This document shows positions 4,745-47,265 of a stretch of 64,000 bases of DNA, one piece after another. The position numbers were made by a program, and so were the translations under genes. Source of the stretch: an uncultured Gammaproteobacteria bacterium (lineage in GTDB: Bacteria > Pseudomonadota > Gammaproteobacteria > SZUA-229); the NCBI GenBank assembly GCA_963847575.1, contig CAWKAL010000045.1, positions 14,942 through 78,941 of the forward strand, in the 5' to 3' direction. Numbering within the stretch: the first letter of the stretch is position 1; each line of letters starts with the position of its first letter. The notes below the pieces were generated by a model. That model ran no database searches, was not told where the DNA came from, and saw nothing but the letters and a program-made list of their open reading frames with translations.

Positions 4745-5401
4745 ATGCCACTCGCCCTGTTTGATCTCGACAACACCCTGCTCGCCGGGGACAGCGATTA
4801 CCTGTGGGGCTGTTTCCTGGTGGAAAAGGGCCTGGTCGATGGTCGACTCTACCAGCAGGCCAATGACCGCTTTTATGCCGAGTACGCCGAAGGCCGGCTG
4901 GATATTCACGAATTTCTGAATTTTGCGCTGACCCCGCTGGCGACATTCGATACCGAACTGCTCACCCGCCTGCATGAAGAATTTATGCAGGGCAGCATAC
5001 GCGACATTATGACCCGCGCCGGGCAGGAAAAAGTAGCCGAGCACAAGGCCATGGGGCACACCACGCTGATCATCACTGCCACCAACAGCTTCGTCACTGC
5101 GCCGATTGCACAGGCGTTTGCTGTCGATCACCTGATTGCCACCGAGCCGGAAATAATAAACGGCAAATACACCGGCAAAGTCGCAGGCGTACCCAGTTTT
5201 CAGCACGGCAAGATCACCCGCCTGCAGGCATGGATGCAGGCGCATAATGAGAACCTGGAAGACAGCTGGTTTTACAGCGATTCGCACAACGACCTGCCAC
5301 TGCTCGAACAGGTAAGCCACCCGGTGGCGGTCGACCCGGATAAACAGCTCGCCCGGATCGCCGGCGAACGTGGCTGGCAGATTACCAGTTTTAGAAACTA
5401 G
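4745..5401 (+). CDS. HAD-IB family hydrolase (phosphoserine-phosphatase-like)
   Basis: 218 aa; N-terminal LALFDLDNTLL (DxDxT) HAD motif I, C-terminal SDSHNDLPLL motif. Confidence 0.8.
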   Translation: MPLALFDLDNTLLAGDSDYLWGCFLVEKGLVDGRLYQQANDRFYAEYAEGRLDIHEFLNFALTPLATFDTELLTRLHEEFMQGSIRDIMTRAGQEKVAEHKAMGHTTLIITATNSFVTAPIAQAFAVDHLIATEPEIINGKYTGKVAGVPSFQHGKITRLQAWMQAHNENLEDSWFYSDSHNDLPLLEQVSHPVAVDPDKQLARIAGERGWQITSFRN

Positions 5402-6057
5402 TTCTCGACCAGGGGCGCGCGCAGACTGTTGAAGTTTTGCGGCGCAACATATTGCAATACTTCTTTGGCTTTATCGCCAAGCGCGATCACCAGGCCTTTT
5501 TCAGGATAGAGATAATGCTTAATGCCGTCGCCGGTTTCGATCAGCTCGGCCGGTTCACCAAAACGCTTGCGCACGATCTCATCATCAAGATTGACAGCAG
5601 GAATAAAAGCAATTGCGCGCAACACTGCGCGCATCGCCAGTGCCTTGTCAGTTTCATCGAGCGCATATTTTTTTGCAGTGCCGGTTTCCATGTAATCAGA
5701 TTTGATCGCACGCTGCTGCCACTGGCGTAACTGCTGCGCATCAGTTTCGGCGACCAGCACCATCTTTGCCGCCATCAGTCCCGCGCGATAATTGCCAAAA
5801 TACATCTCAAGGCTGATGCCGGATGCATTCTCGACAATCGCAAGCTTGTAATCATCACCCAGCACTGTCGCTGCCTGCTGCAGCGTGCTTTGCCCGGGCG
5901 TGACACCAAAAATTTTGCTATTGCCATCCGGCAATATTTCAATTTGCCACGGCAGCCCACTAAGTTTTGGCTTATCGGAATTATCCATGCCAATAAACGG
6001 ATACACCGCGAGCACCAGGATAATAATCAGAAATGTAGGGATAAAACGTCGCATCAA
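5398..6057 (-). CDS. hypothetical exported protein (N-terminal signal/TM segment)
   Basis: 219 aa ORF, hydrophobic N-terminus MMRRFIPTFLIIILVLAVYPFIG, no recognisable domain; 4-nt overlap with the convergent HAD gene. Confidence 0.6.
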   Translation of the reverse strand: MMRRFIPTFLIIILVLAVYPFIGMDNSDKPKLSGLPWQIEILPDGNSKIFGVTPGQSTLQQAATVLGDDYKLAIVENASGISLEMYFGNYRAGLMAAKMVLVAETDAQQLRQWQQRAIKSDYMETGTAKKYALDETDKALAMRAVLRAIAFIPAVNLDDEIVRKRFGEPAELIETGDGIKHYLYPEKGLVIALGDKAKEVLQYVAPQNFNSLRAPLVEN

Positions 6058-6094: not shown

Positions 6095-6226
6095 AGTCCG
6101 CAAATGAACGCGAATAAACGCAAATACGATTTCGTGTGTTACATGCTTTAATGGCATCTGACAGATTTCCAAAAATTTAGATCATACGTTTTTTTGAAAC
6201 AATAAATTCGCGTTTATTTGCGGACT
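6095..6226. repeat. MITE-like hairpin element, copy A (CGCAAATGAA-type arms)
   Basis: Left arm agtccgcaaatgaacgcgaataaacgcaaat (6095-6125); right arm attcgcgtttatttgcggact (6206-6226) is its reverse complement with one 10-nt unit fewer. AT-rich core. Shares an identical 28-mer with copy E. Confidence 0.75.
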
Positions 6227-6262: not shown

Positions 6263-6829
6263 TCAGGCCTTGGGCAGGGTGACACCACGCTGGCCCTGGT
6301 ATTTGCCGCTGCGGTCTGCGTATGATGTTTCGCAGACTTCGTCTGATTCGAAAAACAGCATTTGTGCCACGCCTTCGTTGGCATATATTTTTGCCGGCAG
6401 TGTCGTGGTGTTGGAAAACTCCAGCGTGACATGCCCTTCCCATTCAGGTTCCAGCGGTGTGACGTTGACAATGATGCCGCAGCGCGCATATGTCGATTTG
6501 CCCAGGCAAACCGTGAGCACATTGCGCGGGATACGAAAATATTCGACCGTGGACGCGAGCGCGAACGAGTTCGGCGGAATAATACACACCGGACCATGGA
6601 AGTCGACAAAGCTGTGCTCGGAAAAATCCTTCGGATCGACGACTGCTGAATTTATATTGGTGAAAATTTTAAAGTGGTCAGAACAACGCACGTCATAGCC
6701 GTAACTCGACGTGCCATAGGAAATCAGTTTTTCACCGTCAGCACCCGCGCGTACCTGGCCAGCCTCGAAGGGCTCGATCATGCCTTTTTCAGATTCACGC
6801 CGGATCCACCTGTCAGATTTAATACTCAC
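6263..6829 (-). CDS. dcd: dCTP deaminase
   Basis: 188 aa; [11 protein letters not shown]...NPIDPGYRGE-like dCTP deaminase family core, length as E. coli Dcd. Confidence 0.95.
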
Positions 6830-6906: not shown

Positions 6907-8097
6907 TCAGTGCTCGCCTGTCAGCAGTGACGATAACGGCAGATTGATTTCATCGATAACGACCGGACGATAGTGCTGCTGCACCATATCTGCCGGCAGT
7001 TGTGCCGCCATCGAGGCAGGAATCAGTTCATAGACCAGCGACACGTTTAACTGCAGCGCGTCCGAGCGCGGGGGCAACTCAAACTGTTCAGTGCGGGTCT
7101 CCAGCGGCTTCAGCGCGGTATCGAGCCAGCTCGCCACAGCTTCCCGACCATTGACCTGCAACCCGGCCTTGTTCAGGTAGGTGAATTCATACTGGCGCGT
7201 GCCGGTAGTCACCACCTCGCCTTTGTCCGTGGTCAGTCTGACCGTTAAAACCAGTCTCGCCGGATGCGCGCCGCCAGTTGGAAAATTATGCCCGGTTTTA
7301 ACATTTGACACTTTGACCACGAGCCGGGTTTTATCCTGCACCGGCATAAGCTGTATTTTCGCAGCCCCGGTTAACAACTCCGATGACGCATGTCCGCCCG
7401 GAAACCGGTGCGAGCGATGCGTCGTTTTAGCCGTGCCCGCTTCAGCATCCGCTACCACTGGCATATGACAGTCAGTACACTGGGTATGCTCGGCAAACGC
7501 ACTGCTGCGCCATTCATGATAGGTATTTTCAAGCGGCATACCATTTTGCAATACATCATGATGACATCCTGCACACAGGCTTGAATTTGTCAGCGCTTCA
7601 CTGTGCCTGATTTCGTGCCCAGCGGTAATTTTATTTTCGCCTGCACCGTACATTATCTGGCGCGGGTCCATTACCAGGAAATGCTGGCCCGCACGCTCGC
7701 GCACCTGTGCGACTTTATGGCAAACCGTACAGGTAACGCCTTCGCGACTGACTGGATTTTTAAGCTCGGTATCACCCGTCAGTAATGCCACCGGCGCATG
7801 GCAACGCAAACACGATGAAGCATCCTGTGCCTGTTGAGTTGCATACTTTTGCCAGCGTGATAAATCCTGCTGAAACACCGGGTTGCTGTATGCCTTTGAC
7901 ATCCATGACTGCTTCCATTCAGCATAGATCTGCTGATGACACTGGCGACATTGCTCGGCTGATTGAAAACTTAATGTTGGTGGCTTCTGCACCTTAGCTG
8001 GCGCGGGTGATAGCGCGTCAATCGAAGCCGCGCCCAGGCTTGCGCTGCAAAAAATCATCCCTATGGAAAAAATGCGTGCGTAGAATACGGGAGTCAT
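6907..8097 (-). CDS. pentaheme c-type cytochrome (multiheme cytochrome c family), signal-peptide bearing
   Basis: 396 aa with five CxxCH motifs (CRQCH, CLRCH, CTVCH, CAGCH, CTDCH) and an N-terminal signal sequence. Confidence 0.85.
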   Translation of the reverse strand: MTPVFYARIFSIGMIFCSASLGAASIDALSPAPAKVQKPPTLSFQSAEQCRQCHQQIYAEWKQSWMSKAYSNPVFQQDLSRWQKYATQQAQDASSCLRCHAPVALLTGDTELKNPVSREGVTCTVCHKVAQVRERAGQHFLVMDPRQIMYGAGENKITAGHEIRHSEALTNSSLCAGCHHDVLQNGMPLENTYHEWRSSAFAEHTQCTDCHMPVVADAEAGTAKTTHRSHRFPGGHASSELLTGAAKIQLMPVQDKTRLVVKVSNVKTGHNFPTGGAHPARLVLTVRLTTDKGEVVTTGTRQYEFTYLNKAGLQVNGREAVASWLDTALKPLETRTEQFELPPRSDALQLNVSLVYELIPASMAAQLPADMVQQHYRPVVIDEINLPLSSLLTGEH

Positions 8098-12915: not shown

Positions 12916-14223
12916 TTGCGAGTGCTAGTGCTAGAGAAGAGCCGCCTGTTCCAGAAAGTTCTGCGTGAACAACTGGAAGCACTCGACTGCGAGGTCGATT
13001 GTGCGCGGACTGGCGAGGACGCGCTGGAATGCCTGCACGCTAACGAATATGGCCTGATTATTGCGAGTCAGCATGCATTCGATGGCAGCTGTGCAAAATT
13101 TACCGACTACTACACCTCGATGAAAAATCGCTGCCCGGCGATGCTGCTCACCTCCGAGCCCAATGAAACCCTGCTGAACCGGGCCCGTGCTGCGGGAATT
13201 ACCGATATTTTCCCGAAATCCAACCTGGCCTATATGGCTGACAGTATTCGCTACATTGTAAACGGCGAAAGCCTGATCGACATCAAGGGCGGCCGCGTAC
13301 TCTACATCGAAGACAGCCGCGCGGTGGCACACGCGATGACGCGCTATCTTAAAAAACTCAACCTGGTGATTACGCATTACGACAATGCCGAGCAGGCGCT
13401 GAGCGATTTCAACGCCCATGACTACGACCTGGTGATTACCGATATTATGCTCGAAGGCAGCATCGACGGGGTGGCGCTGGTACGCATGATACGTGCGCAA
13501 AAAACCAACCAGTCACAAACCCCCATACTCGCCCTCACCAGCTATGACGACCCGCACCGGCGCATCGAGTTATTCCGCGCAGGCGTAAATGACTATGTCA
13601 CCAAACCACCGGTGGAAGAAGAACTCGCCGCGCGCGTCAATAATCTGATTACAAATAAACGGCTGCTTGACCATGTCCGCCAGCAGAAACATTCGCTGCT
13701 CGAGCTGGCGATGAAAGACCAGCTGACAGGCTGCCATAACCGCCACAGCCTGGCAGAATACGCCCCCAAGATGCTGGCTGATGCGGAACGCTATAAATAT
13801 TCGTTGTCAATTTTGATTCTTGACCTGGACCATTTCAAAATCATAAATGACGAGTACGGCCATACCGTCGGTGACGATGTACTCGCGGATGTCGGCAAGC
13901 AGCTCCGCTCCTGTTGCAGGCAGGGCGATTTCATTTGCCGACTCGGTGGTGAGGAATTTATCCTGCTATTACCGCATTGCGATGCCATCCACGCATTGAA
14001 CAAGGCCGAGGAAATTCGCGGCCAGATTGAAAACAGCATGCCGGCAGGTATTCGAATCACGGCAAGCATAGGCGTAACAACATTCAGCGAAAGTCATAAA
14101 CTGAATTTTGACAACCTTTACAAGGAAGCCGATGAAGCGGTCTATCATTCCAAGGAAACCGGCCGCAACAAGGTAAGCAAGGCAGTGCCGAAGGCAACAT
14201 CAGTCAAGCATGCTAATCACTAA
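12916..14223 (+). CDS. response regulator with two receiver domains and a GGDEF diguanylate cyclase domain
   Basis: 435 aa; REC1 (MRVLVLEKS...), REC2 (RVLYIEDS...DLVITDIMLEG), then GGDEF domain with RLGGEEF active site. Confidence 0.85.
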   Translation: MRVLVLEKSRLFQKVLREQLEALDCEVDCARTGEDALECLHANEYGLIIASQHAFDGSCAKFTDYYTSMKNRCPAMLLTSEPNETLLNRARAAGITDIFPKSNLAYMADSIRYIVNGESLIDIKGGRVLYIEDSRAVAHAMTRYLKKLNLVITHYDNAEQALSDFNAHDYDLVITDIMLEGSIDGVALVRMIRAQKTNQSQTPILALTSYDDPHRRIELFRAGVNDYVTKPPVEEELAARVNNLITNKRLLDHVRQQKHSLLELAMKDQLTGCHNRHSLAEYAPKMLADAERYKYSLSILILDLDHFKIINDEYGHTVGDDVLADVGKQLRSCCRQGDFICRLGGEEFILLLPHCDAIHALNKAEEIRGQIENSMPAGIRITASIGVTTFSESHKLNFDNLYKEADEAVYHSKETGRNKVSKAVPKATSVKHANH

Positions 14224-22082: not shown

Positions 22083-22718
22083 ATGAATGCACAAAAACGC
22101 CACGAGATATTTTCGCGTCTGAGAAAGAACAACCCCGAACCCACCACCGAACTCAAATACGACACGCCCTTTGAGTTACTGATTGCGGTAATCCTTTCCG
22201 CACAGGCCACCGATGTCAGCGTCAACAAGGCAACAACAAAACTCTTCCCCGTTGCAAACACACCGAAAGCGATTTACAAACTCGGTGAGGCCGGCCTGAA
22301 AAAATACATAAAGACCATTGGCCTATATAACAGCAAGGCCGCTAACATTATCAAGACCTGCAGAATACTCGTCGATGAATACAACAGCGAAGTACCGCAG
22401 GAGCAGCAGCAGCTCGAAGCCCTGCCCGGTGTCGGCCGCAAGACTGCCAACGTGGTACGTAACACCGCGTTTGGCCATCCGACGATTGCAGTGGACACCC
22501 ATATCTTTCGTGTATCCAATCGCACAAAAATCGCGCCCGGCAAAACCGTGCTCGAAGTCGAAAAGAAATTAATTAAATTTGTCCCCGAAGAATTCAAAAA
22601 AGACGCGCATCACTGGCTGATTCTGCACGGACGTTACACCTGCATCGCGCGCAAGCCACGTTGTGGTTCGTGCGTGATTGAGGATTTATGTGAATACAAG
22701 GACAAACAAATCGAATAA
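22083..22718 (+). CDS. nth: endonuclease III
   Basis: 211 aa; HhH-GPD domain, LPGVGRKTANVV, C-terminal CX6CX2CX5C 4Fe-4S cluster; last gene of the rnf operon as in E. coli rsx-nth. Confidence 0.95.
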   Translation: MNAQKRHEIFSRLRKNNPEPTTELKYDTPFELLIAVILSAQATDVSVNKATTKLFPVANTPKAIYKLGEAGLKKYIKTIGLYNSKAANIIKTCRILVDEYNSEVPQEQQQLEALPGVGRKTANVVRNTAFGHPTIAVDTHIFRVSNRTKIAPGKTVLEVEKKLIKFVPEEFKKDAHHWLILHGRYTCIARKPRCGSCVIEDLCEYKDKQIE

Positions 22719-22729
22719 AAATAATCAGT

Positions 22730-22868
22730 CTACGGATGAACGCAAATGAACACGGATGTAAGATTAGTAAAACAGCACTGCAGTATCAATGCGGACTGTG
22801 CACCAGTATTGCGAAGAAAGATTCTACATTGAATTTATCTGTGTTCATCCGCGTTCATCCGTGGATAA
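22730..22868. repeat. MITE-like hairpin element, copy C (CRGATGAAC-type arms)
   Basis: Left arm ctacggatgaacgcaaatgaacacggatgtaa (22730-22761); right arm ttatctgtgttcatccgcgttcatccgtggataa (22835-22868) is its near reverse complement. Begins 12 nt after the nth stop. Confidence 0.75.
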
Positions 22869-29762: not shown

Positions 29763-30143
29763 ATGAACATCGTAAGACACGGATTATCAATTGGCATCGA
29801 ACATACCGGACATGATTTTTGCATGACGCTAAAAGTGGCGGGTAAGCTCACACACGAAGACTATGAAGTCATGGTGCCGATGCTTGAATCGGCGATCGCA
29901 GGCATCAAGCATCCCGAAATAAAAGCCTTGATCGACGCCACCGAGCTTGAAGGCTGGGAACTGCGTGCGGCCTGGGATGATTTAAAGCTTGGCCTCAAGC
30001 ACGGCAAGGAATTCAAAAAAATTGCCGTGCTCGGCAACAGTAAATGGCAGAAATACGCCAGCAAGATCGGCACGTGGTTTACCTCGGCTGATATAAAATA
30101 TTTCGAGGATACTACTGAAGCGCTAAGCTGGCTTGATGACTAA
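29763..30143 (+). CDS. STAS/SEC14-like DUF3478 family protein
   Basis: 126 aa; ..KVAGKLTHEDYEVMVPMLESAI...ELEGWELRAAWDDLKLGLKHGKEFKKIAVLGN pattern typical of DUF3478. Confidence 0.65.
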   Translation: MNIVRHGLSIGIEHTGHDFCMTLKVAGKLTHEDYEVMVPMLESAIAGIKHPEIKALIDATELEGWELRAAWDDLKLGLKHGKEFKKIAVLGNSKWQKYASKIGTWFTSADIKYFEDTTEALSWLDD

Positions 30144-30168: not shown

Positions 30169-30332
30169 ATCCACAGATGAACGCAGATGAACACAGATAA
30201 CGACAAAAAAATCAGGCCGCAAAAAACGCAAAGAACGCGAATCAATAAATAATTATTTTTCGCGCTCTTTGCGTATTTCGCGGCAAATTATTCAGCTTTT
30301 ATCCGTGTTCATCTGCGTTCATCTGCGGATAA
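30169..30332. repeat. MITE-like hairpin element, copy B: composite, with an inner CGCAAA-type hairpin (30216-30284) nested inside CAGATGAAC-type outer arms
   Basis: Outer arms atccacagatgaacgcagatgaacacagataa / ttatccgtgttcatctgcgttcatctgcggataa (2 mismatches in 32). Inner arms gccgcaaaaaacgcaaagaacgcgaa / ttcgcgctctttgcgtatttcgcggc. Confidence 0.75.
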
Positions 30333-30344
30333 GTTGACAGGGAA

Positions 30345-30785
30345 CTACTTGAAAATTTTCTGCCACCAGCGTTGGCGGTTTTTTGGATAGAGCGCGGGCT
30401 CCAGCTCAATGGGGGGAATGCGTGAAAGAATCCAGCCCGGTAACGGTGGTTTTTCGCTGAAACCACAGGTCACACCCAGGTTATTCGGATCGAATATCTT
30501 GATGAAGCCGGGTGTTTGCTGGTGGTCGGCGTAGACAATTCCACAATATTCTTCTTCGTGTTCGCGCCGCAACAGGGCATCCACTTCACTGATAAATGTC
30601 AGCACATCCTGTTGCTTCGACGGATGTTCCGGTGGCGTTTCACCAACGGCATAAATATACCAGCCGTCATCCACCTGGGATTTCAAGCTCGTCCAGAATT
30701 CATCAAGCTGCGGCCAGCGCATTACCGATGTAAAACTGCCACGAAATGCATCCAGAAAACTTTGTTCAACAGAAACATCCATCAC
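30345..30785 (-). CDS. hypothetical protein
   Basis: 146 aa ORF, no recognised motif; convergent with the DUF3478 gene across repeat B. Confidence 0.55.
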   Translation of the reverse strand: MMDVSVEQSFLDAFRGSFTSVMRWPQLDEFWTSLKSQVDDGWYIYAVGETPPEHPSKQQDVLTFISEVDALLRREHEEEYCGIVYADHQQTPGFIKIFDPNNLGVTCGFSEKPPLPGWILSRIPPIELEPALYPKNRQRWWQKIFK

Positions 30786-34191: not shown

Positions 34192-34341
34192 CCGGAATTA
34201 TTGTTCATATTATTTGAATAATACATCCAATATATTTCATTATATTATTTATATAGCATTATTTATCATATAGTTAATTATTGCAATATATTGATTAGTT
34301 ATATCCAAGATACCCTTACCCGCCTCGAGAGGAGACACCCC

Positions 34342-35698: not shown

Positions 35699-37354
35699 AT
35701 GAAAGCCTCTGATCTATTCGTCAAATGTCTCGAAGCTGAAGGTATTGAATATATCTTCGGCGTACCCGGCGAAGAAAACGCCGATTTCATGATCTCGCTG
35801 GAAGAATCCGAGACCATCAAGTTCATCCTGTGCCGTCATGAACAGGGCGCAGCATTTATGGCGGAAATCTACGGCCGTCTCACCGGTCAGCCTGCCGGCT
35901 GTCTCGGTACGCTCGGCCCGGGCGCCACCAACCTGATTACCGGGGTTGCTGATTCCAATATGGATCGCTCACCCATGCTGGTACTCACCGGCCAGGGCTC
36001 GACCGAAAGACTGCACAAGGAATCACACCAGATCATGGACGTGGTGCACATGTTCGAACCGGTGACCAAGTGGGCGACCACGGTCCTGCACCAGGACAAT
36101 ATCCCGGAAATCGTACGCAAGGCAGTACGCCTGGCGCGCACTGAAAAACCCGGCGCGGTGCATATCGAACTGCCCGAAGACATCGCCAGCAACGACGCCA
36201 AAACCAGCCCGATGCAGCCACGCCGTTTCAGGCGCCCGGTGCCTGACGACAAAATCGTCGACCAGGCATACCAGATCCTGAAAAAAGCCAAACGACCGAT
36301 CATCCTTGCCGGCAACGGCTGTATTCGTAAACGCGCCAGCAAACAGCTGCGCGCCTTTTGTGAAAAAACCGGCATCGGCGTAATCAGCACCTTCATGGCC
36401 AAGGGCTGCGTCGACATGAATGCTGACTACTGCCTGTATACCATCGGCCTGCAGGCCAAGGACGTGGTCGCCTGCGCCATCGATGCCGCGGACGTGGTGC
36501 TATGCCTCGGCTACGACATGGTGGAATACCATCCTGAACTGTGGAATTCAAAACGCGACAAGCACATTATTCATGCCGACTTTTTACCGGCTGAAATCGA
36601 TGAATTTTTTCACCCCGAAACCGAAGTGGTCGGTGACCTGGCGCACGCGCTGTGGATGCTCAACGAACGCGTGGCTGCCGAACAGACACCGCTCAAGTTC
36701 GATTTATCACAACAGGCCGCCACCCGCCGCGACATGAGTGCCGAACTGGAAATGTACAAGGACGACAAAACCAGCGGTGTCATCAAACCGCAAAAAGTGC
36801 TGTGGGACGTACGCCAGGTGATGGGCCGCCACGACGTGCTGCTGTCCGATGTCGGCGCACATAAAATGTGGATTGCTCGGCATTATCAGTGCCACGAACC
36901 CAATACCTGCTTAATACCCAATGGTTTTTGCTCGATGGGCTTTGCCCTGCCCGGCGCGATCGCCGCCGATATCGTGTTCCCGCAAAAACGCATCCTCGCG
37001 ATCTGCGGTGATGCCGGCTTCATGATGAACATGCAGGAAATGGAAACTGCACGACGGCTGAATTCAGACATCGTTGTCATGGTGTGGGAAGACAAGGAAT
37101 ACGGCCTGATCGCCTGGAAACAACAGGCACATTTCGGCAAGCACACCGATCTGTCATTTGGTAACCCCGACTGGCTGAAACTGGCCGAAGCCTTCGGCTG
37201 GCACGGCCACTTCGTCGACAACAGCGAGAACCTGGTCGACACCCTGGAAACCGCGTTCGAAGAAATGGGCCCAAGCCTGGTGGTGATACCGATCGACTAC
37301 GACGAAAACATGAAACTCACCAAACGGCTGGGTGATATTGCGTGCCCGATTTGA
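35699..37354 (+). CDS. acetolactate-synthase-like thiamine-pyrophosphate enzyme (AlsS family)
   Basis: 551 aa; TPP N-domain (FGVPGEEN..RHEQGAAFMAEIYGRLTGQPAGCLGTLGPGATN) and C-terminal TPP-binding GDAGFMMN motif. Confidence 0.85.
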   Translation: MKASDLFVKCLEAEGIEYIFGVPGEENADFMISLEESETIKFILCRHEQGAAFMAEIYGRLTGQPAGCLGTLGPGATNLITGVADSNMDRSPMLVLTGQGSTERLHKESHQIMDVVHMFEPVTKWATTVLHQDNIPEIVRKAVRLARTEKPGAVHIELPEDIASNDAKTSPMQPRRFRRPVPDDKIVDQAYQILKKAKRPIILAGNGCIRKRASKQLRAFCEKTGIGVISTFMAKGCVDMNADYCLYTIGLQAKDVVACAIDAADVVLCLGYDMVEYHPELWNSKRDKHIIHADFLPAEIDEFFHPETEVVGDLAHALWMLNERVAAEQTPLKFDLSQQAATRRDMSAELEMYKDDKTSGVIKPQKVLWDVRQVMGRHDVLLSDVGAHKMWIARHYQCHEPNTCLIPNGFCSMGFALPGAIAADIVFPQKRILAICGDAGFMMNMQEMETARRLNSDIVVMVWEDKEYGLIAWKQQAHFGKHTDLSFGNPDWLKLAEAFGWHGHFVDNSENLVDTLETAFEEMGPSLVVIPIDYDENMKLTKRLGDIACPI

Positions 37355-37374
37355 TGTGATGAAAAACTTCATAA

Positions 37375-37547
37375 GCGAAACCACAGAGGCACAGAGTACA
37401 CAGAGGGAAAACAATTACTGTTGTTTAAAGCATTTGAAATATTGTATTTATTCAACCAAAATAATTGCGTCTAACTTGCGTATGGTTTATTTGACTTACA
37501 ATAAATTATTGTTTTCTCTGTGTACTCTGTGCCTCTGTGGTTTCGCC
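37375..37547. repeat. MITE-like hairpin element, copy F (CACAGAGG-type arms)
   Basis: Arms gcgaaaccacagaggcacagagtacacagag(ggaaaac) at 37375-37411 and gttttctctgtgtactctgtgcctctgtggtttcgcc at 37511-37547: a 31-nt perfect inverted repeat flanking an AT-rich core. Confidence 0.8.
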
Positions 37548-37627
37548 TTTTGCTTTTATATTCACATACACTACTTTGCGAATACGCGGTGCATTATTGT
37601 TAAAATCTGTGATTAACAGGAAATATT

Positions 37628-39065
37628 ATGTCTGACCATTTCAAAATGCTTGTCCCCGGCGCCACGCCCAGCGGCAAGGTGGATGTCACCGCGCCGTTTG
37701 ACGGCGCGCATATTGCAACCATCGAAACCGGCGACAACAATGCCGTTGACATGGCGCTTGCCACTGCCGACGCTTTATATAGAGACAGGAAAAACTGGCT
37801 GAGCGCAGAACAACGCATCAAGGTGCTGGATAAAACCGCAGACATCATGCAATCACGGGCTGAAGCGCTCGCGCTTGAAGCCGCGCGCGAAGGCGGCAAA
37901 CCCCTGATCGATTCACGCGTCGAAGTCGCGCGCGCCATCGACGGCATTAAAAACTGCATCGAAGTTTTACGCAGCGGGCACGGCGAAGAAATTCCCATGC
38001 AGAAAAATGCCGCATCGATGAACCGGCTGGCCTTCACCACGCACGAACCCATCGGCGTGGTGGTTGCAGTGAGTGCATTCAATCATCCACTGAATCTTGC
38101 GGTACACCAGGTCGGGCCCGCCATTGCCGCAGGCTGCCCGGTCATTATCAAACCGGCGGGCGATACGCCATTCTCGTGTTTTCGCCTGATCAGTATTCTA
38201 CGCGAAGCCGGCCTGCCCGATGGCTGGTGCCAGGGCATTGTCACCGACGCACGCGAAGCCGCGACCCGGCTGGTGACAGATGCGCGCGTTGGATTTTTCA
38301 GTTTTATCGGCAGCGCAAAAGTCGGCTGGATGCTGCGCTCACAACTTGCACCGGGAGCGCGCTGCGCACTCGAACACGGCGGTGTCGCACCGGTGATTGT
38401 CGCAGAAGACGCCGATCTTGAAGACGCTATCCCGTTACTCGCCAAGGCCGGCTTCTATCACGCCGGCCAGGTCTGTGTTTCAGTACAACGCGTGTATGCG
38501 CATAAATCGATTGCACGCACAGCTCGCGAACAACATTGCCGATATCGGCAATAAAATGAAAGTGGGCGACCCCACCCTGGCGGACACCGATGTTGGCCCG
38601 CTGATTCGCGAATCGGAAACCGATCGCATTCACGCCTGGGTAAGCGAAGCGGTGCAGGAAGGGGCGGAATTAATCTGTGGTGGAAAAAATATCACCGCCA
38701 GCACTTACCAGCCTACGGTGCTTTTCAATGCACCCGATGATGCCACCATTTCGCGCAATGAAATATTCGGCCCGGTGATCCAGGTCTACGAATACGACAA
38801 TATTGACGACGCAATCAGGCGCGCAAACGCACTCGATGTTTCATTCCAGGCATCGGTATTTTCCAGCAACATCAACACCTGCCTGTATGCATTCAAACAT
38901 CTCAACGGTTCTGCCATCATGGTAAACGACCACACCGCCTTCCGGGTCGACTGGATGCCATTCGCCGGCCTGAAACATTCCGGTCACGGTGTCGGCGGCA
39001 TCCCGCACACATTCAAGGACATGCAAATCGAAAAAATGATGGTGATACGCTCAAAGCTGCTCTAG
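37628..39065 (+). CDS. NAD(P)-dependent aldehyde dehydrogenase family protein, with an apparent frameshift near 38500-38530
   Basis: First frame has ALDH N-terminal and catalytic regions up to ..GQVCVSVQRVYAHKSIA; second frame continues ..LANNIADIGNKMKVGDP...EIFGPV...; joined length about 478 aa is typical. Confidence 0.75.
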
Positions 39066-41447: not shown

Positions 41448-41858
41448 GTGAAATATGCAGCCATTATATTCTTATTAATTACACCCCTGCTCAGCCATGC
41501 CGGCCCCTATGACGGCGCGGGCAACCCATACATGGGTATGGACCCCGCAAAAATGCAGCAAATGGTCATGGAAATGCAGAGCTGTATGCAAAACATCAAC
41601 ATGGACGAAATGGAGAAACTAAAAGTACGCGGCCAGGCGATGGAACAGGAAATAAAAACCCTGTGCAGAAACGGCGAGCGTGACAAGGCCATGAGTAAAG
41701 CGATGGCATTCAGTAAAGAAATCAGCGCCGCACCGGAACTGGCGAAAATCCGCAAATGCAGCGAAAAAGCCCGCAGCATGATGCCGAACACCATGCAGTT
41801 CGAAAAATTCAGCGAAGAAAGTTTCAAAAACTCGCACATCTGCGATGAAATGAAATAG
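41448..41858 (+). CDS. hypothetical secreted Met/Cys-containing protein
   Basis: 136 aa; signal peptide MKYAAIIFLLITPLLSHA; Met-rich with 4 Cys; no recognised domain. Confidence 0.55.
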   Translation: MKYAAIIFLLITPLLSHAGPYDGAGNPYMGMDPAKMQQMVMEMQSCMQNINMDEMEKLKVRGQAMEQEIKTLCRNGERDKAMSKAMAFSKEISAAPELAKIRKCSEKARSMMPNTMQFEKFSEESFKNSHICDEMK

Positions 41859-41882
41859 CTGGCAGCAGAAATAAAATAATTC

Positions 41883-41986
41883 TAGCCGCAAATGAACGCG
41901 AATAAACGCAAATAAAGATGATTAGTATAGTGCGCCGCAGGCGCAGAATAAAACATTTTGCGTTCATTCGCGTTCATTTGCGGCTA
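41883..41986. repeat. MITE-like hairpin element, copy E (CGCAAATGAA-type arms, same subfamily as copy A)
   Basis: Arms tagccgcaaatgaacgcgaataaacgcaaa / tttgcgttcattcgcgttcatttgcggcta: 30-nt inverted repeat with 1 mismatch; small GC hairpin (tgcgccgcaggcgca) in the core. Confidence 0.8.
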
Positions 41987-42010
41987 AATAATTCTGACCT
42001 TCATAGAAAA

Positions 42011-42901
42011 TCACCACAACCAGGCGGCACCGCGCACGCCGGATGAATCGCCGAATTTTGGTGCTGACAAACGGGTTTCAACCCGGTCAGAAAAAACATA
42101 CCTGCCCCACAAGTCGGGTATGTTTTTATACAGTCGCTTGATATTGCCCATACCGCCGCCCAGCACAATCACATCCGGGTCGATGATATTGATAACATGC
42201 GCAAGCCCGCGTGCAAGTCTATCTTCATAGCGTTGCATGGTTTCAAGTGCATCCTCATCACCAAACCTGGCTTTCGCGACAATGGTTTCCGACTCCAGGA
42301 TAACATTGGCATATAACTCGTGATCACGCGTCATACCCGGCCCTGATACAAAGGTTTCGATACAACCCTGTTTGCCGCAATAGCACTCCGGCCCCGGCAG
42401 CTCTATGTCCAGCGGCCAGGGCAGCGGATTATGGCCCCATTCGCCCGCAATCGCGTTGCGGCCGACAAGAATTTTCCCGTCGACCACAATACCCGCACCG
42501 GTACCGGTGCCGATAATAACGCCGAACACGGTACGCGCGCCGTGCGCGACCCCATCGGTGGCTTCCGATAATGCAAAACAGTTGGCGTCATTAGCTATAC
42601 GTATGTCGCGCTGCAATACCGTGGTCAAGTCCTGCAATAACGGCTTGCCATTCATGCAGACTGAATTTGAGTTTTTCATCAGGCTGGTGACGGGAGAAAT
42701 CGCACCGGGTGTTCCGATGCCGACAGTACCGGTTTGCGCTGCCGAGGTTTCTATATGTGTAACCAGTTGCTTAATCGCATCTAGTGTAGCTTCGTAATTT
42801 CCCTGTGGCGTAGCCACGCGATGATGTACCAGTTCGGCACCGTTGTCATCGAGCGCAATGCCCTCGATTTTAGTGCCGCCCAGATCAATGCCAATTTTCA
42901 T
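42011..42901 (-). CDS. ROK family sugar kinase (N-acetylglucosamine kinase NagK / fructokinase Mak-like)
   Basis: 296 aa; MKIGIDLGGTKIE..; zinc motif CYCGKQGCIE; similarity across the full length to E. coli NagK. Confidence 0.85.
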   Translation of the reverse strand: MKIGIDLGGTKIEGIALDDNGAELVHHRVATPQGNYEATLDAIKQLVTHIETSAAQTGTVGIGTPGAISPVTSLMKNSNSVCMNGKPLLQDLTTVLQRDIRIANDANCFALSEATDGVAHGARTVFGVIIGTGTGAGIVVDGKILVGRNAIAGEWGHNPLPWPLDIELPGPECYCGKQGCIETFVSGPGMTRDHELYANVILESETIVAKARFGDEDALETMQRYEDRLARGLAHVINIIDPDVIVLGGGMGNIKRLYKNIPDLWGRYVFSDRVETRLSAPKFGDSSGVRGAAWLW

Positions 42902-42907
42902 TTTAAT

Positions 42908-43137
42908 CAGTCCACATATGAACGCGGATGAACACAGATTAAAAATAAGTATGTTGTTAGATAATTAGAATGACGATATTTATTGTGATAATAGTGTGCA
43001 GATTGTCGGAGATTTAGTAGTCGCATAACGCCCTCGCTTTTACCTTAAATATATTTACTTCCGCAGCCGCTTAATAATTTTAACTTCTATTTTTCTGTAC
43101 AGCATTCATCTGCGTTTATCTGCGTTCATCCGTGGAC
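42908..43137. repeat. MITE-like hairpin element, copy D (CRGATGAAC-type arms, largest core)
   Basis: Arms agtccacatatgaacgcggatgaacacagat / atctgcgtttatctgcgttcatccgtggact; 165-bp AT-rich core; the right arm ends exactly at the stop codon of the adenosyltransferase gene. Confidence 0.75.
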
Positions 43138-43674
43138 TTATTTATTCTTTTCAGACTTCCAGTAAATTTCATCTGTGTCATTTAAAACCCTGGCGAACAC
43201 AAACAGCAGGTCAGAAAGTCGGTTTACATAGGCCAGCGAGACCGGGCTGAGACTGGTGCTGCGGTTGAGTGCTACCATGCTGCGTTCGGTTCTGCGACAC
43301 ACGGCTCTTGCGAGGTGACATAATGCACCTGCCTCGTTTCCGCCCGGCAGAATAAATTCTTTCAGCGGCTGCAGCTTTGTATTGAATGCATCAATGCGAT
43401 GCTCAAGCGCATCGACCTGTTTCTGCTTGAGTATTGGCTGTCCCAGGCTGATCTCACCGCCGATATCGAACAGCGCATGCTGTATATCTCGAATCACAGC
43501 AAGATTGTCACCTGTCAGATTGACCGCCAGCACACCGAGCTGACAGTTAAGCTCATCGACTTCGCCCTGTACCTGCATCAGCGGGTCATCTTTTGGCAAA
43601 CGGGCCCCGCTTGCGGTGCCGGTTTCACCTTTGTCACCGGTGCGCGTATATATCCTGGTCAGTCGATTAGCCAT
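43138..43674 (-). CDS. cob(I)yrinic acid a,c-diamide adenosyltransferase, PduO type
   Basis: 178 aa; ..IYTRTGDKGETG..GEVDELNCQLG.. PduO/MMAB family. Confidence 0.85.
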   Translation of the reverse strand: MANRLTRIYTRTGDKGETGTASGARLPKDDPLMQVQGEVDELNCQLGVLAVNLTGDNLAVIRDIQHALFDIGGEISLGQPILKQKQVDALEHRIDAFNTKLQPLKEFILPGGNEAGALCHLARAVCRRTERSMVALNRSTSLSPVSLAYVNRLSDLLFVFARVLNDTDEIYWKSEKNK

Positions 43675-43714
43675 TGTGGGTGTTGTCGTTATGTTCCTAA
43701 ATAGTTAATGTGCA

Positions 43715-43975
43715 GCTTACCGCAGGTGCCTGTTGTAGAGCCATTCTGCAACAGGTTAAACGGGAAGTCAGTAAGCGATTCTGGAGTCACTGAATATTTT
43801 TTCAGCGATCTCGAGTAGTTACAAACGCAATTCTGACGCTGCCCCCGCAACGGTGATTGAGTCAAAGCCCTGTCGTACACCACTGTAAGCATGCTTATGG
43901 GAAGGTGACAGGCGCAAAGTCGCAAGACACTCATCAGCCCGGAGACCGGCCCGTGGTGCCCTCTAACTTACACGC
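43715..43975 (+). promoter_or_regulatory. cobalamin (AdoCbl) riboswitch in the btuB leader
   Basis: Core-like cgggaagtcagtaagcgattctggagtcactg; cactg...gggaaggtg; B12 box agcccggagaccggcc at 43936-43951; GC hairpin overlapping the btuB RBS. Confidence 0.55.
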
Positions 43976-44000
43976 GCGGCGGGCGCGGGAGCAATACCCC

Positions 44001-45825
44001 ATGATTAAACCTCTCTGCGTTGCCATACTGGCAACACTCTGTCTGCAGGCGCAGGCTGAAACACGACTACATCCGATCATTACTTCATCACGCGTGGCAC
44101 AAAGCGCCGACCAGACCATGACGGCCGTCAGTGTGTTAACACGTGAAGATATCGCGCAAAGCCAGTCGCAATCAACCGTTGAATTATTGCGCGAGCGCAT
44201 TCCGGGACTGGACTTCCTTACCACTGGCGGCAGCGGCCACCAGGTAAGCACGTTTTTACGCGGCACCAGCTCTGACCAGTTCCTGTTGATGATCGATGGC
44301 AATATCGTCGGCTCGGCCACCACCGGCTCGGCCGCAATCGAACTGATCCCGCTTGATAATATCGAGCGCATCGAAGTGATCCGCGGACCGCGCTCATCGC
44401 TGTACGGCTCCGAAGCCATCGGCGGCGTGATCCAGGTGTTTACCCGCAGTGATAATAAAACCACGGCGTCGATCACCAGCGGATCACTGCATACCGCGGC
44501 CGCAAGCGCAGCCACCCAGTTTGGCAATGACAGTACCACGCTTAACATCGCGGTGAATCATTACCAGACTGAAGGTTTCGATGTCACCAACGACACCGAA
44601 AACGACAGCGATGGCTACGACAACGACTCGGTCAACCTGCGTTTGCAACATGCGCTCAATCCACGTACGCGGTTATTTGCCAATGCCCTGTATGCCGACG
44701 GCAATACCCGGTTTGATAATGACACGTTTGATAATGCATCGGATTCGATCCAGCAAAACTACCAGCTGGGCGCCGACACCGATGTGAATTCAGCCTGGAA
44801 CAGCCGGTTTGAAATCGGCCAGAGCAAGGACGAACTTGTCACCGTGCGCAACAGCCGTGATTTTTTTACGCCCGGCCTTATTAATAATGAAGTCACGCTG
44901 TTCATCACCCGGCGCGACCAGGCACACTGGATCAATACGCTTAATTTTGGTGACACCGGCCAGGCCAGTCTCGGCGCTGATTACATTAATGACAAGGTTG
45001 AAGCTACCACGCCATACACGGAAAACCAGCGCAGCAATCGCGCGGTGTATGCCCTGGTGCAGGACAAGTTCGGCCGCAATCAGCTGCAACTGGCGGCACG
45101 ACTCGATGACAATGAAGCCTTTGGTAGTCACACCACCGGCAGCATCGCCTGGGCGTATGACATTAGTGCCAGTGAACGCATTCGGCTTTCACAGGGCACG
45201 GCGTTTATCGCACCATCGTTCAATGACCTGTATTTTGTCGATCCGTTTTTCAGCGGCAACCCGGATCTTGAACCGGAAACATCACGCACATCGGAAATTG
45301 CCTTTACCACCAGCCAGCCCTGGGGCAGCTGGCAACTGAATGTGTATCGCACCCTGATCAAAAACCTGATCGTGCTCAACAACAGCTTCACCTCGGTGGA
45401 AAACGCCGCGCGCGCCAGCATTCGCGGGGTTGAATCCGAGCTCGATGTCCGCCGTGATGCCTGGAACCTGAATTTCAACCTGTCAGTGATCGACCCGGTG
45501 GATAAAACCACGCGGCCTGGTGTTGCAGGGCCGCGCGAAACAAACCCTCAAGCTCAGTGCTGCACGCAATTTTGGCAGTGTCCAGTTGGGCACCAGTGTG
45601 CTGGCACAGGGCCCGCGCTATGCCAACGCGAGCAACAGCATCGAGCTGCCGGGATACGGCATTATCAATCTGACGGCTGCTAAAACCATCGACCAGCACT
45701 GGCAGCTGAAAGCACGGCTAGAGAACCTGCTGGACAAGGAATATTCGACCTCGATCGATTTTTTCCAGAACACCAGCAACAACACGCCGATTGCACTGTT
45801 TGTCAGCCTGCATTACCAGCAATAA
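44001..45825 (+). CDS. btuB: TonB-dependent vitamin B12 receptor BtuB, with an apparent frameshift near 45510-45540
   Basis: Start MIKPLCVAILATLCLQAQA (signal peptide); TonB box region; plug domain; C-terminal barrel continues in a second frame (..LQGRAKQTLKLSAARNFG...LFVSLHYQQ). The longer listed ORF start lies inside the riboswitch. Confidence 0.8.
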
Positions 45826-46095: not shown

Positions 46096-47076
<981 letters not shown>

Positions 47077-47084
47077 AAAATATT

Positions 47085-47236
47085 AACCGCAGAGGCGCAG
47101 AGGACGCAGAGAAAACATAATTATTGTTAACAGCAATAATTAATAAAAATATTATTACAAACCCTGGACATACATAATCAAGTGTTTTTGTTTTTACATA
47201 AAAATCCTTCTCTGCGTCCTCTGCGTCTCCGCGGTT
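47085..47236. repeat. MITE-like hairpin element, copy G (CGCAGAGG-type arms)
   Basis: Arms aaccgcagaggcgcagaggacgcagagaa / ttctctgcgtcctctgcgtctccgcggttt, 27/29 complementary; 90-bp AT-rich core; starts 9 nt after the moxR stop. Confidence 0.8.
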
Positions 47237-47265
47237 TAGGCTTTTTTTGTTTCTAAAGAATCAAC

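Follow-up and report, generated by a model that had tools for sequence, protein, structure and literature searches.

Hairpin Elements in the Window

The stretch of DNA considered here, referred to below as the window, is 64 kb long and comes from an uncultured gammaproteobacterium; the subject of this report is a set of seven intergenic hairpins within it, labelled A to G, whose inverted arms are made of two to three tandem units of 8–10 nt. The window is ordinary chromosome, with 'Thiotrichaceae' and 'Gammaproteobacteria' metagenome-assembled genomes (MAGs) as its nearest named relatives, and the hairpins are scattered 1–16 kb apart among housekeeping genes: those flanking them include dcd, nth, rnf, a ROK kinase, a cobalamin adenosyltransferase, moxR/DUF58, a thiamine pyrophosphate (TPP) enzyme, and an aldehyde dehydrogenase. 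An earlier reading made from the letters alone (the sequence-only reading) had picked out the seven as one family, and the hairpins are real. In a scan for inverted repeats with arms at most 400 nt apart, the seven loci supply nine of the ten strongest in the whole 64 kb. The unit CRCRRATRAAC occurs 18 times in the window (0.73 expected; none of 100 shuffles had as many), 17 of them inside the elements, while tandem CRCAGAGK units are found within the window solely in F and G. All seven copies have arms of about three tandem 8–10-nt units, of the form C-R-C-R-R-A-T-R-A-A or CRCAGAGG and preceded by CC, and all share the polarity unit...core...reverse-complement unit. They have the terminal inverted repeats of MITEs (miniature inverted-repeat transposable elements), and their loops measure 40–170 nt.

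The seven differ in size, unit sequence, and neighbours. Element A (6095-6226; inverted repeat I9) pairs over 21 nt at 95% complementarity (arms 6095-6115/6206-6226), has units of the CGCAAATGAA/CGCGAATAAA subfamily around an AT-rich core, and lies beside dcd (6263-6829, minus strand) and an open reading frame (ORF) of 219 amino acids (aa; 5398-6057, minus strand). C (22729-22868; I5) pairs over 29 nt at 86% (arms 22729-22757/22837-22865), has CGGATGAAC/CAAATGAAC units, and stands between nth, which ends at 22718, and a DUF1841 gene. B (30169-30332; I3) is of the canonical CAGATGAAC type, an arm type shared with many phyla; it pairs over 32 nt at 94% (arms 30169-30200/30299-30330) and is flanked by convergent genes, a SpoIIAA-like gene at 29763-30143 (plus strand) and a gene at 30345-30785 (minus strand). 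Its core holds a second element, inner B (30216-30284; arms 30216-30241/30259-30284; 26 nt, 88%; I7), with units of the CGCAAAGAA/CGCGAA type. F (37375-37547; I1), between the TPP-enzyme and aldehyde dehydrogenase genes, has 8–9-nt CACAGAGG units and a GCGAAACC terminus, and its pairing extends to 37354-37567 (arms 37354-37405/37516-37567; 52 nt, 83%). E (41883-41986; I4) belongs to the A subfamily, pairs over 30 nt at 97% (arms 41883-41912/41957-41986), and lies between convergent genes (41448-41858, plus strand; ROK, 42011-42901, minus strand); its core contains a small GCGCCGCAGGCGC hairpin that recurs in two loci from other genomes (L004 and L029; such loci are cited by L numbers throughout). 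D (42908-43141; I8) has CGGATGAAC/CAGATAAAC units in arms at about 42911-42944 and 43105-43141, of which 42916-42942/43115-43141 pair (27 nt, 78%), around a 170-nt AT-rich core. On the left, 7 nt separate the end of the arm from the start codon of ROK; on the right, the arm directly adjoins the cobalamin adenosyltransferase stop codon. G (47085-47236; I2) is inside the moxR-DUF58 operon and has CGCAGAGG units, with pairing that extends to 47075-47246 (arms 47075-47113/47208-47246; 39 nt, 85%).

These measurements bear on what had been claimed for the family. The reported complementarity of 27–31 of 30 positions fails for some copies, A pairing over only 21 nt (two units) and D being complementary at 78%; all seven copies were found, with the amendment that B is a nested pair. 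That the arms pair in folding was confirmed for every element: z-scores against shuffles run from -5.2 (D) to -16.5 (B) for RNA (A, -6.5; C, -7.9; G, -11.7; F, -13.8) and from -4.8 to -11 for single-stranded DNA (A, C, E, and inner B; A, -4.8; inner B, -6.3; E, -11). The concern that the copies might be collapsed repeats can also be set aside, since matching elements fill matching sites in four independent assemblies of close relatives (L001 from ENA, L002 from JGI, L003 from Logan, and L237 from NCBI). A search of Rfam 15 at gathering score found nothing for the hairpins, the only match in the window being a cobalamin riboswitch, and lowering the threshold to E values of up to 5 for elements E and D brought only chance matches to plant miRNA precursors.

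One Arm in Many Phyla

The arm type of element B is not peculiar to this genome. A search with the arm CAGATGAACRCAGATGAAC in contigs from one genome per species (596 Gb; estimated chance expectation about 9) matched at least 120 loci. Those listed come from Acidobacteriota, Planctomycetota, Verrucomicrobia, Cyanobacteria, Alpha-, Beta-, Gamma-, and Deltaproteobacteria, Gemmatimonadota, Latescibacterota, NC10, and WOR-3, together with one Methanoperedens MAG that is possibly contamination. An inverted partner (at least 24 of 31 positions, within 600 nt) is present at 58 of the 120 matches listed. In these paired loci the polarity is 5'-CAGATGAAC...GTTCATCTG-3', as in the window (L020, L072, and L122 are exceptions), and the cores are unrelated and 30–430 nt long. 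When the arms are lined up by their outer ends, almost every one has the sequence NN-CC-RCAGATGAAC-RCAGATGAAC-RCRGAT, which amounts to exactly three units. Paired arms of the F/G type were found in other phyla too; no ORF partner for these CRCAGAGG arms was seen in the loci examined, where L139 proved to be a GC-rich arm cluster only. In viral contigs there were only 21 arm stretches. A head-to-tail array of at least seven CAGATGAACG units lies in a Firmicute, the Alicyclobacillus mengziensis chromosome (L042, about 7140-7290), with no inverted partner.

Other arms are solo, and many of these stand in frame with an ordinary gene that starts a few codons downstream. Such loci include L008, L049, L055, L081, L093, and L096, with downstream genes that are, for example, ArgC-like or encode an ABC ATPase or a TetR regulator. 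Gene callers will extend the genes that follow solo arms with MNADERR-type N-termini.

A Nuclease Gene Between the Arms

The arms are physically linked to one gene family. In three loci (L033, L057, and L062) the core is about 400 nt long and consists of a single ORF of 120–126 aa that matches TIGR04256 ('GxxExxY protein')/PF13366 (PDDEXK_3) with E values of about 1e-43. In all three the ATG lies inside the arm, where ATGAACrCAGAT reads Met-Asn-Ala/Thr-Asp. A fourth such gene (L095) is flanked by arms of CCGCAGATCT-type units, and the gene was also met between arms in L132 and L135. The overlap between arm and coding sequence recurs: 57 of 120 database homologues begin with M[NDH][AT][DN], the translation of an arm unit, including MNAN, which corresponds to the unit of window elements A and E. 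A second sample was drawn by GxxExxY protein similarity alone (80 metagenome loci, 77 of them usable), and a significant inverted repeat, with arms that nearly always consist of tandem units of about 10 nt, surrounds the gene in 46 of the 77. The unit types around GxxExxY genes are CAGATGAAC, CAAATGAAC, ACAGGATKAAC, CACCGATGAA, and CGCGAATAACGCAAAAGACGCGAAA. The last is the inner-B type, which flanks the gene in L210 and is nested in L075. In the loci examined, GxxExxY is the only gene found between such arms, and never a transposase.

One site recurs. Several Wenzhouxiangella genomes and an unrelated stromatolite MAG have a GxxExxY cassette that separates carA from carB (L057, 1168-1595; L135, 2480-2915; L132, 1345-1820), with the stop codon of carA overlapping the start codon of GxxExxY (ATGA) within the arm. 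The arms carry three CAGATGAAC units in two of the genomes and three CAAATGAAC units in the third. The cassette could be a very old insertion or occupy a preferred homing site.

The protein is predicted to be an active nuclease. Its AlphaFold model (mean predicted local distance difference test score, pLDDT, 94) best matches the structures of Cas4 SSO0001, lambda exonuclease, and MGME1, and residues D68, E78, K80, Q92, and Y96, which we take to be the RecB-type motif, are invariant. In the open-access literature searched, GxxExxY, PDDEXK_3, and PF13366/TIGR04256 receive passing mentions only, and a 2012 survey of PD-(D/E)XK families records PF13366 as 'Unknown' and reports multiple transfers across bacterial divisions. 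Searches of PADLOC (defence systems), PHROGs (phage families), and PDB sequences gave no matches. Neither the exact repeat strings nor the genomic context of GxxExxY was found in the open-access papers and preprints searched, although an earlier description is possible. Literature searches with the arm-encoded peptide returned only unrelated papers matching a different string, and a search on small dispersed repeats of cyanobacteria yielded nothing on these hairpins. The MITEs described for Thiomargarita were considered and rejected as a different family, since they have direct-repeat ends.

Persistence, Turnover, and Nesting Among Relatives

Relatives with the same gene order are available at several distances, measured by protein identity: 96% (L001–L003 and L237), 86% (L004), and 76–80% (L005 and L127–L131). 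Once inserted, copies stay in their intergenic sites over long periods. Nearly all of these relatives have the D, E, F, and G sites filled, often by another subfamily. The F site is filled in L001, L004, L005, and L127–L129, while the units at the E site are CAAATGAAC in the window, CAGATGAAC in L004, and CACAGAG in L005, L127, and L129. Divergence from the 96% relatives, against a reference of 9.3% at third codon positions, varies among copies: F differs at 1 of 169 positions, G at 0 of 152, D at 10 of 221, C at 8 of 140, and B at 24 of 149, indels not included, and uncompensated changes are present in the L237 ortholog of B. Constraint is thus uneven, with some copies decaying and two conserved unusually well.

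Empty sites also exist, and the family looks mobile in the manner of MITEs or bacterial interspersed mosaic elements (BIMEs). Site C is filled in L237 and empty in L238/L239, whose nth and DUF1841 genes have a 4-nt overlap; site G is empty in L131, with an overlap of 4 nt between moxR and DUF58 as well. The relatives with empty sites are too diverged for exact insertion boundaries to be read from either. The mobile look of the family is strengthened by nesting. Besides B in the window, a CAGATGAAC-type element sits inside a decayed F-type element at the F site of L004, F-type elements sit inside F-type elements at the E sites of L129 and L127, L028, L029, and L136 have CAGATGAAC elements within F-type arms, and nested elements occur in L075 and L077 as well. 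A second, unrelated hairpin repeat of the GTCGTCATTCCGG...CCGGAATGACG type is found in the same spacers (D and F sites of L005, D site of L127, core of L017), sometimes inside the cores of the elements studied here.

Covariation and Concerted Change of the Arms

The sequence-only reading held that the units differ between copies while the two arms of each copy remain complementary. Across the family this stands. When 48 arm pairs drawn from many phyla are aligned, pairing is seen in 88.9% of cells, the covariation score comes to 0.196 (shuffles give 0.119, and none of 500 attained the observed score), and sliding the partner arm by 1–3 columns lowers pairing to 26–41%. Covarying columns include 2/73 (A-U 19, G-C 16, U-A 10), 5/70 (A-U 24, G-C 23, one wobble), 15/60 (G-C 26, A-U 17), and 25/50 (G-C 22, A-U 16). 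Within the window, what looked like covariation is mainly the coexistence of three or four subfamilies (A/E, B/C/D, F/G, and inner B): an arm is often as close to the arm of another copy as to its own partner, and each subfamily recurs elsewhere with its sequence unchanged. Closer to the core the pairing becomes weaker. At columns 27/48, which hold the third unit's second purine (CRC-R-GAT), 29 of 48 elements lack a Watson-Crick pair, 12 of them having G.U wobbles; typically one arm has G and the other A, and the neighbouring pairs are all kept.

Among the explanations offered for matched arms were concerted evolution and selection for a stem. Concerted change is directly visible in three cases. 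First, the whole of E is inverted in L001 and L002 with its flanks collinear (101 of 104 positions match when it is flipped, against 91 unflipped). Second, L127 and L128, which encode an identical ROK protein, have different numbers of units and of whole arms. Third, all six units change together between orthologous carA-carB elements, from CAGATGAA to CAAATGAA. Of RNA-specific selection there is no sign: G.T and A.C mismatches number 63 and 62 and occur together in 26 elements, which lends no support to selection on one RNA strand.

Other Features of the Window

Several observations concern the surroundings of the hairpins. An arm-like sequence stands beside the ROK start in all relatives examined, even with a different upstream neighbour; the start codon is 7–13 nt from the outer arm end (GTGGAC/GCGGAC) in the window (42901-42916), L001, L004, L005, L127, and L129, and the arm end may furnish the ribosome-binding region of the kinase gene. 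The cobalamin riboswitch (RF00174, 93 bits) lies at 43707-43968, upstream of a TonB-dependent receptor gene and next to the cobalamin adenosyltransferase gene. An ORF called in the receptor gene starts at 43857, inside the riboswitch, so that this start is probably wrong. Compared with the 96% relative L001, the window has single-base insertions at 38521, 44000, and 45513. The first splits the aldehyde dehydrogenase gene, which is a single 478-aa gene in relatives, into ORFs 37628-38554 and 38397-39065, and the TonB-dependent receptor gene, which contains the other two, is split into 43857-45683 and 45520-45825. Both could be real pseudogenes or long-read assembly indel errors. A pirin gene found between a LysR regulator and a nitroreductase in L001, L004, L005, and L127 is absent from the window, where a very AT-rich spacer of about 100 nt is left (34192-34290). 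Finally, a weak blastx match at 13081-13260 was dismissed as chance; the true gene of this stretch is on the opposite strand and encodes a GGDEF-domain response regulator.

Interpretation and Alternatives

Taken together, these results suggest, with a probability of roughly 55%, that the seven hairpins are REPIN- or MITE-like non-autonomous copies of a hairpin element associated with GxxExxY nucleases (REPINs being hairpins formed by paired repetitive extragenic palindromic, or REP, sequences). Put in terms of structure, and at the same odds, the window copies would be gene-less members, non-autonomous or relic, of a dispersed 'foldback' element. Its anatomy comprises two inverted arms of about 30–40 nt, each with three tandem units of 8–10 nt, outermost a CC and a few paired bases, and between them an arbitrary, usually AT-rich core. 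In the full-length form the core is a GxxExxY gene of about 125 aa, whose product is modelled as a PD-(D/E)XK protein with a RecB/Cas4/lambda-exonuclease-like fold and an intact D...ExK...QxxxY motif. No ORF lies between the arms in the window and GxxExxY genes lie between such arms elsewhere, which makes the window copies the gene-less form. As for mechanism, we infer that a GxxExxY protein encoded elsewhere in the genome would recognise the iterated units, or the hairpin that they form in single-stranded DNA, and would promote copying or insertion through breakage and repair, with no target-site duplication left behind. Short gene junctions and the loops of existing hairpins would be its preferred sites. 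The likeness of the two arms is maintained in part by descent from matched masters and in part by recombination or template switching between arms and slippage of units.

The insertion sites themselves are informative here. Three independent cases (nth|DUF1841, moxR|DUF58, and carA|carB) are at gene junctions that overlap or are tightly coupled, or that probably once did or were. Element-specific inverted complementarity runs about 10–20 nt past the units, which fits either insertion into pre-existing palindromes or hairpin loops or a mobile unit with varying outer ends. Element E, alone among the copies, is flanked by a 10-nt direct repeat, AAATAATTCT (41874-41883 and 41986-41995), that overlaps a palindrome, AGAATTCT; it may be there by chance.

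A number of results weigh against an element moved by GxxExxY. First, the expected parent is not at hand: there is no GxxExxY gene within the 64-kb window, and a translated search of the window cores matched only the first 10 or so residues, which the arm itself encodes, with no remnant of the nuclease gene. With non-homologous cores and no gene remnant, the short copies are not simple deletion derivatives. Second, the usual footprint of transposition is missing: across 51 elements the identity of direct repeats in the flanks equals that of the shuffled control at nearly every offset from 0 to 15, the largest excess being about 2 standard deviations at offset 3. Third, about 45 of the 120 canonical three-unit arms listed are solo (no partner within 4 kb), and a pure 'two-ended transposon' picture does not predict solo arms upstream of genes. 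Fourth, that the D, E, F, and G sites are occupied in relatives as distant as 79% protein identity speaks for long persistence, not frequent movement, and F and G are unchanged from L001 save for 1 of 321 positions, a near-identity that, set against 9.3% at third codon positions, could reflect a function at the level of the host. Finally, no published nuclease activity or mobility of GxxExxY was found in open-access papers or preprints.

The last two genomic points lead to the chief rival, which we consider unlikely and which is also compatible with a selfish origin: that the host keeps the hairpins for a role at the RNA level, as a 3'-end stabiliser, an RNase III site, or an intercistronic insulator, with mobility only their origin. 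Their position agrees with it, as it does with the preferred reading. All seven window copies are downstream of at least one gene end, and for 51 of 59 elements of the family an ORF of at least 120 aa has its 3' end no more than 40 nt away. Many of these ORFs have their stop codon within the arm, with offsets spaced by 10 nt; since AGATGA and GATAA are contained in the 10-nt unit, three units give stops in two or three frames. Read inward, 109 of 118 arms have stops in two to three frames (31% of shuffled arms do), and read outward, 100 of 118 are open in all frames. To these can be added the strong RNA folding, the sites that stay filled across relatives, and, as the best argument, the conservation of F and G. 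Against a host role stand the equal numbers of G.T (that is, G.U) and A.C mismatches, with no strand-specific preference; the decay of B in a 96% relative; the sites that other relatives leave empty, with overlapping genes in place of the element; and the arms of F/G type, which have no stop codons. Nor do the elements look like terminators: the outer flanks 3' of the stem are A-rich in most family members, a U-tract after the stem is not the rule, and a scan for intrinsic terminators (29.5–48 kb) picks out only short sub-hairpins in the arms of D (43119-43136) and G (47100-47087), none of its calls covering the long stem. A consensus scan of the same interval showed no enrichment of promoters, the single promoter-like sites in the F and G cores being weak evidence. 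Above all, an RNA role leaves the near-identical arms in different phyla and the nuclease gene unexplained.

Classical MITEs, that is, internally deleted insertion sequences of the DDE type moved by a transposase encoded elsewhere, are improbable. Such elements would account for terminal inverted repeats, small size, several intergenic copies, nested insertions, and empty sites. They would not account for the lack of a target-site duplication at any offset in the 51 elements, for cores that are unrelated between copies, or for GxxExxY rather than a transposase between the arms; the window ORFs tested are all housekeeping, and the 30 that were scanned include no transposase. Still less probable is a REP/REPIN system spread by a REP-associated tyrosine transposase (RAYT), an IS200/IS605-like Y1 transposase of the HUH class. 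A hairpin built from two inverted repeats, numerous copies without a gene, one protein gene with the same repeats on both sides, an intergenic location, vertical persistence, and the missing duplication all recall RAYTs. The flanked gene, however, encodes a PD-(D/E)XK protein rather than a Y1 transposase, the arms are arrays of tandem units instead of short imperfect palindromes, and no Y1 transposase or RAYT is among the 30 window ORFs scanned. According to PMC3733652, most REPs carry a GTAG/CGTC end tag, whereas the arms here end in NNCC-RC without one. Equally improbable are binding arrays for a host DNA-binding protein (nucleoid-associated, regulatory, or iteron-like) with three sites at one helical turn: a 10-nt period that places the units along the same helical face, a count of exactly three units in almost every arm, very high conservation of the unit across phyla, and solo arms upstream of genes would fit, but within one genome the units differ (CAGATGAAC, CAAATGAAC, CACAGAGG, and CGCAAAGAA) and the period varies from 8 to 10 nt, the covarying positions point to pairing and not to one fixed recognition sequence, and we know of no host factor common to all these phyla that reads such units.

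With GxxExxY-associated elements retained as the preferred explanation, a wider claim can be put forward tentatively, with the odds somewhat against it: GxxExxY proteins, which form a very large family without a known function, may be the nucleases of an unrecognised class of selfish hairpin cassettes that occurs across prokaryotic phyla and has left thousands of gene-less hairpins such as these seven, with arms of three iterated 10-nt units that carry the start codon of the cassette and stop codons for incoming ribosomes, and insertion without target-site duplication at gene junctions and in old hairpin loops. REP, BIME, and MITE hairpins shape operon expression and genome rearrangement, and to our knowledge dispersed intergenic hairpins of these kinds have so far been traced to two enzyme classes, the DDE and HUH transposases. 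If the claim is true, GxxExxY cassettes would be a third enzymatic route to such repeats. A single arm of about 30 nt, seen in phyla as distant as Acidobacteriota, Planctomycetota, Cyanobacteria, and Proteobacteria, is tied physically to a small RecB/Cas4-like nuclease family with no assigned function, which gains a testable role (TIGR04256/PF13366). The arms explain common spurious 'hypothetical proteins' (MNADERR... and ...FICVHLRSSAV). The elements also offer a system for studying how inverted repeats of tandem units stay matched, since flipping, slippage, and nesting are visible between close relatives.

Comparison With Known Systems

The hairpins resemble several known systems in part. 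Like integron attC sites, which act as folded single strands, they are imperfect inverted repeats whose structure is kept above sequence; the arm ends have no GTTRRRY (R''/L''/L'/R') cores, and there is no cassette array and no nearby integrase. The intervening sequences of 23S rRNA, which target rRNA helices, also have a small ORF within stem-forming inverted repeats and are tolerated in the transcript; their protein is a four-helix bundle (PF05635), unlike PF13366 here. The Foldback (FB) transposons of Drosophila share inverted arms of short tandem repeats, a variable centre, and variable unit number. This likeness is architectural only: FB elements are eukaryotic, far larger, and make target-site duplications.

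Closer at hand, bacterial MITEs such as Correia, Nezha, and ERIC are also small, hairpin-forming elements with terminal inverted repeats that lie between genes or within operons and can be nested, but the elements described here have no target-site duplication and no shared internal sequence, and their parent-like form carries a nuclease instead of a transposase. Enterobacterial REP/BIME hairpins, which may stabilise the upstream mRNA, similarly lie just after stop codons inside operons; their sequence architecture is different, and the arms here pair over at least 30 nt across a long loop.

The best functional analogy is with the REPIN/RAYT systems reportedly described by Bertels and Rainey in 2011: in both cases gene-less inverted-repeat hairpins coexist with one flanked protein gene, are intergenic, persist vertically, and leave no target-site duplication. 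The differences are as specific as the likenesses. The protein is the PD-(D/E)XK family member GxxExxY here and a Y1 HUH transposase there; each arm consists of three tandem 8–10-nt units here, in place of a short palindrome with a GTAG/CGTC tag; the spacers here are long (40–170 nt) and unrelated; and the arm is nearly the same across phyla, whereas REPs are lineage-specific.

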